Shown here: positions 2,003 through 2,061 of the stretch, in pieces
Layout: the number at the start of each line of letters is the position of its first letter
How positions within the stretch are numbered: position 1 is the first letter of the stretch
Source: Escherichia coli
GTDB taxonomy: Bacteria > Pseudomonadota > Gammaproteobacteria > Enterobacterales > Enterobacteriaceae
Direction: 5' to 3' (one strand)
DNA: 3,308 bases
Assembly (NCBI RefSeq): GCF_003334765.1
Contig: NZ_QOWT01000070.1
Position numbers and translations under genes: made by a program
Notes under the pieces: generated by a model
What the model saw: only the letters and a program-made list of their open reading frames with translations
Database searches by the model: none
Told to the model about the DNA's origin: nothing

Positions 2003-2016
2003 CAGGACGGTTTACC

Positions 2017-2045
2017 GGGGAGCCATAAACGGCTCCCTTTTCATT
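2017..2045 (+). terminator. Intrinsic-terminator-like hairpin between nhaA and nhaR (probably partial/attenuating)
   Basis: Stem GGGAGCC (2018-2024), loop ATAAAC, stem GGCTCCC (2031-2037), followed by TTTTCATTGTT. Lies 15 nt after the nhaA stop and immediately before the nhaR RBS. Confidence 0.45.
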
Positions 2046-2061
2046 GTTATCAGGGAGAGAA

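Follow-up and report, generated by a model that had tools for sequence, protein, structure and literature searches.

The nhaA–nhaR locus

The window, by which we mean the whole 3,308-nt stretch of DNA analyzed here, is Escherichia coli K-12-type DNA that carries hokC/sokC, nhaA, nhaR, and the end of an IS1 copy. Of the proteins encoded here, NhaA serves as the principal Na+/H+ antiporter of E. coli; the targets that NhaR activates are nhaA, osmC, and the pga biofilm operon. The nhaA coding sequence ends with a TGA stop codon at 2000–2002 and the annotated nhaR ATG lies at 2062, which leaves a 59-nt spacer at 2003–2061. The 301 nt around this junction occur once per genome in 5426 complete E. 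coli genomes, where the flanking genes are annotated as nhaA and nhaR. Positions in the window are converted to MG1655 coordinates by adding 16653, an offset that was verified on the 61-nt sequence printed with a published 3' end. In the literature, nhaA and nhaR are described as an operon; a promoter for nhaR within nhaA and control by YdeO have been reported as well. The nhaA–nhaR mRNA is also pulled down by the small RNA CyaR, and nhaA is a reported CyaR target. The features on which the analysis turns are as follows, with the source of each in parentheses.

836..2002, plus strand: nhaA coding sequence, Na+/H+ antiporter (ORF list; RefSeq annotation of identical E. coli DNA)
2003..2007, plus strand: CAGGA, a GGA motif of the CsrA type just past the nhaA stop codon; candidate upstream CsrA site (sequence)
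2017..2024, plus strand: 5' arm of the hairpin, GGGGAGCC, which resembles the Shine–Dalgarno (SD)/CsrA motif CAGGGAG (sequence, folding, terminator scan, covariation)
2025..2030, plus strand: hairpin loop AUAAAC, 6 nt (folding)
2031..2038, plus strand: 3' arm of the hairpin, GGCUCCCU, in which CUCCC is complementary to the nhaR SD (folding)
2038..2050, plus strand: U-rich tail UUUUCAUUGUUAU, an interrupted U-tract (sequence, terminator scan, locus comparison)
2043, plus strand: published in vivo RNA 3' end, MG1655 18696 (Adams 2021 Term-seq and TRS 2023 supplements)
2051..2059, plus strand: CAGGGAGAG, the nhaR SD overlapping a CsrA-type motif (sequence, conservation)
2062..2967, plus strand: nhaR coding sequence, LysR-type activator (ORF list, RefSeq annotation)

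The nhaR reading frame has two in-frame ATG codons near its 5' end, the annotated start at 2062 (MSMSHINY) and a second at 2068 (MSHINYNHL). The second is conserved as a start in nearly all of the 80 Enterobacteriaceae loci compared below, whereas the first is present only in Escherichia, Salmonella, and a few Citrobacter. The SD lies 2–4 nt from the first ATG versus about 10 nt from the second.

Anatomy and folding of the junction hairpin

A preliminary description of this DNA placed a 7-bp GC stem with a T-run (2018–2041) between the nhaA stop codon and the nhaR SD and ATG, and proposed that it may act as a partial terminator and so set the nhaA:nhaR ratio or, alternatively, that the SD may be occluded by alternative pairing. 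The coordinates and anatomy agree with the sequence, and the SD (GGGAGAG, 2053–2059) and the nhaR ATG sit where that description put them. The stem is formed by GGGAGCC (2018–2024) and GGCTCCC (2031–2037), which make seven Watson–Crick pairs, six of them G-C; a G2017·U2038 wobble supplies an eighth. The T-run, TTTT at 2038–2041, continues as CATTGTTAT, and the stretch UUUUCAUUG contains six U in nine positions with a longest run of four. This short, interrupted U-tract fits a weak terminator. Both sequence hallmarks of an intrinsic terminator are thus found at the junction: the stem has the expected build (about 5–12 GC-rich base pairs closed by a short loop), and a U-rich tract follows directly 3' of it.

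In a consensus scan, the junction hairpin (8 pairs, 6 G-C) is the top terminator-like site of the window, although such sites are not enriched across the window as a whole (7 versus 4.1 ± 2.2 in shuffled sequences). For the hairpin alone (2012–2046), the folding free energy is -16.1 kcal/mol (z = -4.08), a value that 0 of 200 dinucleotide shuffles reach. When only the spacer is shuffled, a hairpin as stable appears in 0 of 300 cases (-15.5 kcal/mol versus a shuffle mean of -3.6). The 73-nt segment 2003–2075, the folding of which the preliminary description proposed as a check, has a free energy of -23.9 kcal/mol (z = -2.5). The minimum-free-energy structure also shows a long-range helix that encloses the hairpin by pairing the nhaA stop region with the SD. 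We rejected this helix as weak: many of its pairs are G·U, and B2-type E. coli does not maintain it. A search of the entire window against Rfam (E ≤ 1) matched only sok (248–400) and gave no match at the junction, so the junction element is not a known riboswitch or small RNA.

RNA 3' ends and read-through at the junction

An RNA 3' end has been mapped at this hairpin in vivo. In the Term-seq data of Adams et al. 2021 (eLife, PMC7815308), a 3' end at MG1655 position 18696 on the plus strand is classed as "primary" for nhaA. It corresponds to window position 2043, the A of UUUUCA; the last G-C pair lies 6 nt upstream of this position and the nhaR ATG 19 nt downstream. The end was called in two of the three Term-seq conditions of that study, with 933 reads in LB at OD 0.4 and 1093 reads in the third sheet, apparently M63; it was not called in LB at OD 2.0. 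Its intrinsic-terminator score is 8.36, against a cut-off of 3. The accompanying bicyclomycin experiment gives it a Rho score of 0.71 and answers "significant Rho termination region?" with "No," and the site is absent from the study's table of Rho termination regions (PMC7815308). A second laboratory using a different method (TRS; Nat Commun 2023, PMC10687069) reports a terminus at 18692–18704, dominant at 18696–18698, with an adjusted p of 1e-52 to 1e-60 across three LB libraries and the label "Alternative primary in TU" for nhaA. This range corresponds to 2039–2051 in the window. The preliminary description had named uniform read-through with no 3' ends near 2040 as the outcome that would argue against its proposal; both data sets place 3' ends there.

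It had also suggested looking for a drop in RNA coverage, and the published DirectRNA-seq values show one. In 800-nt windows on either side of the site, coverage without bicyclomycin is 74 upstream and 62 downstream (84%), and with bicyclomycin it is 314 upstream and 187 downstream (60%) (PMC7815308). Only about 16–40% of the signal is lost across the site, so termination there is partial. The published tables add to the stem and the U-run a discrete 3' end within the U-tract and independence from Rho, all of them defining features of an intrinsic terminator. Together with the small drop in coverage, these data bear out the proposal of a partial terminator, and the element is probably a weak (leaky) Rho-independent terminator inside the nhaA–nhaR operon.

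Several observations weigh against this assignment. The U-tract is short, with four U followed by CAUUGUUAU, and the Term-seq read counts are low (roughly 900–1100), with no call in the LB culture at OD 2.0. The drop in coverage is small and could be confounded by the reported nhaR promoter inside nhaA or by differing stability of the two halves of the RNA. Moreover, 3' exonucleases could leave an end 5–6 nt past a stable stem. We nonetheless infer that the end at 2043 arises by termination rather than by trimming and that the site may contribute materially to the nhaA:nhaR ratio. The hairpin may also protect the 3' end of the nhaA mRNA.

Conservation of the hairpin

Within E. coli, the 32-nt hairpin and T-run are identical over the aligned part in 5407 of the 5426 complete genomes, while the surrounding 301 nt are at 90–95% identity in 1047 of the 5426. 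The stem, loop, and T-run are unchanged in all Escherichia species sampled (E. coli including the B2 type, E. albertii, E. whittamii, and others), and both flanks vary. The tail of E. albertii contains TTTTT.

The comparison was extended to 80 Enterobacteriaceae nhaR loci, with one genome per species. Spacers of at least 45 nt contain a strong, perfect hairpin (-11 to -23 kcal/mol) in almost every genus, and its 3' end lies 20–32 nt from the conserved nhaR ATG. When each of the 61 distinct spacers of this length was compared with 300 shuffles, 55 gave an empirical p ≤ 0.013. The 62 hairpin-bearing loci, of which the window is one, contain 38 distinct stems. Two contigs in the set carry unexpected names: one binned as "uncultured Alistipes" (L001) is 100% identical to E. 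coli nhaR, and one from "Chryseobacterium sp. 18061" (L067) carries an enterobacterial nhaA–nhaR locus. In both cases, the public assembly was probably misbinned or mislabelled.

Covariation was examined on two alignments. RNAalifold applied to a 52-sequence MAFFT alignment (A1) returned almost no consensus structure because MAFFT had set the arms of different genera out of register, and this alignment was dropped. It was replaced by a 17-sequence MAFFT alignment (A2), which happened to be in register and was not fitted to the structure, together with hairpin searches on each sequence individually. In A2, both partners vary at 9 of 11 pairs, and the share of paired cells is 86.5% versus 70.9% in shuffles. 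The covariation score is 0.517 versus 0.231 ± 0.033 in shuffles (0 of 500 reaching it) and ≤ 0.25 in slid controls. The GAG:CUC core of the stem is invariant in A2.

The U-tract follows a different pattern. A terminator-like U-rich tail is found at only 15 of the 62 loci, in Escherichia, Citrobacter sedlakii, and scattered other lineages. In Salmonella, Klebsiella, Raoultella, Enterobacter, Leclercia, and Lelliottia, the hairpin persists, but the tails are not U-rich and consist of sequences such as UUACGACAU, UGGACAUUA, or AUAAACUAU. Termination is therefore not the sole reason for conservation of the hairpin, which, as judged from these alignments, appears to be under structural selection across the Enterobacteriaceae even where the U-tract is missing. 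Among the loci compared, those of the C. freundii group, Kluyvera, and Atlantibacter lack the hairpin, which is therefore dispensable. In the C. freundii group (L011–L016, L027, L029, and L031), the spacer is 36–38 nt long and retains the T-run, GTGACA, and the SD; in comparison with C. sedlakii (L006), the stem-loop seems to have been cleanly lost.

A stem that persists without a U-run could act mainly as a barrier to 3' exonucleases or as an RNA-stability element. Transcripts that end or are cut downstream would be trimmed back to the stem, stabilizing the nhaA segment relative to nhaR, and the end at 2043 would result from processing, not from termination. The compensatory changes that conserve the hairpin in many genera lacking the U-run are consistent with this reading, as is the distance of only 5–6 nt between the stem and the 3' end. 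Pseudocitrobacter (L055 and L062) has REP/BIME-like palindromes in the slot of the GGGAG hairpin (GCCGGATGG...CATCCGGC and ...ATCCGGCCTAC / GTAGGTCGGATAAG), the spacer of L062 being 111 nt long; their presence in this slot suggests that what is selected after nhaA is a stable stem of any kind and not a terminator as such. In E. coli, however, the end falls in a U-run at the canonical distance, has the intrinsic score given above, and is unaffected by bicyclomycin, and the T-run is kept in all Escherichia species, with the TTTTT of E. albertii among them. We therefore consider it unlikely that the hairpin is mainly such a barrier. The two roles are compatible and not exclusive, and protection from exonucleases may be the function that E. 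coli shares with the genera that lack the U-run.

The hairpin within the CsrA-regulated nhaR leader

The best CsrA-type motifs of the spacer, the CAGGA after the nhaA stop codon and the CAGGGAGAG at the nhaR SD, flank the hairpin, and one CsrA site in this leader reportedly overlaps the SD. The spacer thus has the arrangement of a CsrA-regulated leader, with at least two GGA motifs of which one overlaps the SD, and both motifs are conserved. A GGA within 12 nt of the nhaA stop codon is found in 31 of 59 distinct spacers, versus 14.6 ± 3.3 in shuffles, and CAGGGAG is found in 54 of the 59. According to papers that cite Pannuri et al. 2012, CsrA binds the 5' untranslated segment of nhaR at two sites and represses its translation. 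The nhaAR operon also serves in the literature as the example of CsrA-driven discordance in expression within one operon. Because the documented cause of this discordance is CsrA-mediated translational repression of nhaR in this spacer, a role of the terminator in setting the nhaA:nhaR ratio is only a proposal. CsrA CLIP-seq shows no peak at the nhaA–nhaR junction. The only CLIP-seq peak for the nhaAR operon is at 1003–1171 (MG1655 17656–17824), deep in the nhaA coding sequence.

Comparison of the sequences shows that spacer substitutions reported in the literature map to 2010–2016, just 5' of the terminator stem. Pairing of GUUUA (2010–2014) with UAAAC of the loop (2026–2030) was considered and set aside; it is broken in B2 strains and in E. 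albertii and is therefore probably due to chance. Lescat 2014 mentions a "hairpin-loop CsrA site," which this pairing might represent.

The hairpin could also be primarily part of a translational operator for nhaR. It could join the two CsrA sites, or the CUCCC of its 3' arm could serve as an anti-SD. In the latter case, the SD-like 5' arm (GGGAG) would normally hold the 3' arm; when CsrA or a terminating ribosome occupied the 5' arm, the 3' arm would pair with the nhaR SD and block initiation. The 5' arm does repeat the SD/CsrA motif, and in Enterobacter asburiae it is literally CAGGGAGAG. The invariance of the GAG:CUC core, the constant distance between the stem and the conserved ATG, and the documented CsrA regulation of this spacer would all fit. 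In 24 of 44 distinct junctions, complementarity to the SD is higher for the 3' arm than for permuted stems; for the hairpin in the window, the predicted duplex between the 3' arm and the SD region is -10.2 kcal/mol versus -3.4 for the permuted stems. We also blocked the 5' arm in silico in E. coli, Salmonella, Klebsiella, Enterobacter, and Leclercia; the 3' arm is then predicted to pair with the SD, and the mean probability that the SD is unpaired falls from 0.31–0.80 to 0.09–0.17. These predictions qualify the SD occlusion raised in the preliminary description: pairing of the 3' arm with the SD is expected only when the 5' arm is unavailable.

Against an operator, the stability of the hairpin (-16 kcal/mol) greatly exceeds that of the alternative pairing, and during transcription the hairpin is the first of the two to form. 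The SD complementarity occurs only within a single related clade and could have been inherited from a common ancestor, while deeper genera have unrelated stems that lack it, and the CLIP-seq data have no peak at the junction. In addition, a terminating ribosome cannot melt the E. coli stem because the stop codon, 14 nt away, is too far. A primary role as an operator is thus quite improbable. A dual function, in which the nhaA terminator hairpin doubles as the nhaR operator, seems to us equally doubtful. Here the 5' arm would be a decoy copy of the SD/CsrA site, and the 3' arm would be an anti-SD that flips onto the SD once CsrA, the ribosome, or a small RNA such as CyaR captures the 5' arm. 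If it were true, a single 22-nt element would set both the number of transcripts that reach nhaR and their translation, which would explain why a stem with an invariant GAG:CUC core is kept in genera without a U-tract.

Finally, although terminator-like sites occur across the window at about the shuffled rate, the hairpin being a chance inverted repeat without function is excluded by its folding (z = -4.1, with none of the 300 spacer shuffles matching it), its covariation across genera, its near-invariance in the 5426 E. coli genomes, and the 3' ends mapped to it in vivo.

Proposed mechanism

A leaky terminator at the junction allows us to propose the following sequence of events. Once RNA polymerase has passed the nhaA stop codon, the nascent RNA would fold into the 7–8-bp GC-rich hairpin (2017–2038), and a minority of polymerases would be released at about 2043 on the interrupted U-tract. 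The product would be an nhaA-only mRNA with a 41-nt 3' UTR capped by the hairpin. The majority of polymerases would read through to yield the nhaA–nhaR mRNA. In this read-through RNA, the hairpin would sit between the GGA motifs at 2003–2007 and 2051–2059 of the nhaR leader, at which CsrA is reported to repress nhaR translation.

The nhaA–nhaR spacer is the place at which expression of the two genes becomes uncoupled. A leaky terminator fits a design in which a structural gene is made in excess of its co-transcribed regulator, and it complements the documented repression of nhaR translation by CsrA. The junction element is real, functional, and already catalogued, and the post-transcriptional regulation of the spacer is already published; two public catalogues of RNA 3' ends contain the end at 2043, so current understanding is unchanged. 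The modestly new points are the comparative pattern, in which the hairpin is kept without the U-tract, and the resemblance of its arms to the nhaR SD.

Relation to known regulatory elements

Operon-internal leaky terminators and attenuators are well known in E. coli, examples being T1 between rpsU and dnaG and the rplL–rpoB attenuator. The nhaA–nhaR element shares with these a GC-rich stem-loop and U-run placed between two cistrons, partial termination that yields a discrete 3' end within the U-run, and a downstream regulatory gene that receives fewer transcripts than the upstream gene. It differs from them in that its U-tract is short and interrupted and its apparent efficiency is low, as the drop in coverage of 16–40% indicates. 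It also lies inside a CsrA-regulated leader, about 13 nt 5' of the SD of the next gene.

As in the CsrA-repressed leaders of glgC, pgaA, and cstA, and of nhaR itself (Pannuri et al. 2012), the spacer has a pair of GGA motifs, and one of these overlaps the SD. At a typical CsrA site, the GGA is displayed in a loop, whereas the nhaA–nhaR hairpin buries a GGA in a strong stem. The mechanism by which CsrA acts at such leaders accounts for translation but not for the RNA 3' end.

Intercistronic stabilizing hairpins and REP/BIME elements, as found between malE and malF, are a further class. As in that case, a stable stem directly after the upstream cistron can block 3' exonucleases and give discordant expression. 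In contrast to REP/BIME elements, the E. coli nhaA–nhaR hairpin has no REP consensus in its sequence, and the U-run behind it carries a 3' end of the terminator type. It occurs in exactly one place per E. coli genome, and because of this single copy it is not a REP element. RNA switches that sequester the SD through anti-SD and anti-anti-SD pairing, including riboswitch platforms, resemble the predicted arrangement of a 3' arm with complementarity to the SD and a 5' arm that would compete for it. Unlike these switches, the nhaA–nhaR hairpin has no ligand-binding domain or Rfam match, the switch itself is only a prediction, and the default state leaves the SD largely free.

Other hairpins and RNA 3' ends in the window

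The sok match in the Rfam scan (248–400) is on the minus strand, and the 3' end of sokC RNA in the Term-seq and TRS data is on the plus strand at 17007, window position 354. The Rfam sok model seems to match the strand of the overlap that has the sense of the hokC mRNA. Upstream of nhaA, at 458–492, a hairpin formed by GACGCC and GGCGU is followed by UAAUUUUUU, and a published 3' terminus maps to 17139, window position 486; our built-in terminator scan missed this hairpin because its stem is imperfect. A Term-seq 3' end also lies at MG1655 17501 on the plus strand, which is window position 848, 12 nt into the nhaA reading frame. Its read count of 4844 is above that of the junction terminator, and the end could reflect premature termination or processing at the 5' end of nhaA.

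Directly 3' of the nhaR stop codon is another 7-bp GC hairpin, formed by CTCCCCC (2975–2981) and GGGGGAG (2993–2999), with an 11-nt loop and no T-run. The stretch at 3233–3308, oriented convergently with nhaAR, resembles an IS1 end, and from this likeness we take it for the terminus of an IS1 copy (IS1A). The next plus-strand TRS 3' terminus past nhaR, at 19907–19923 (window 3254–3270), falls within this IS1 end.
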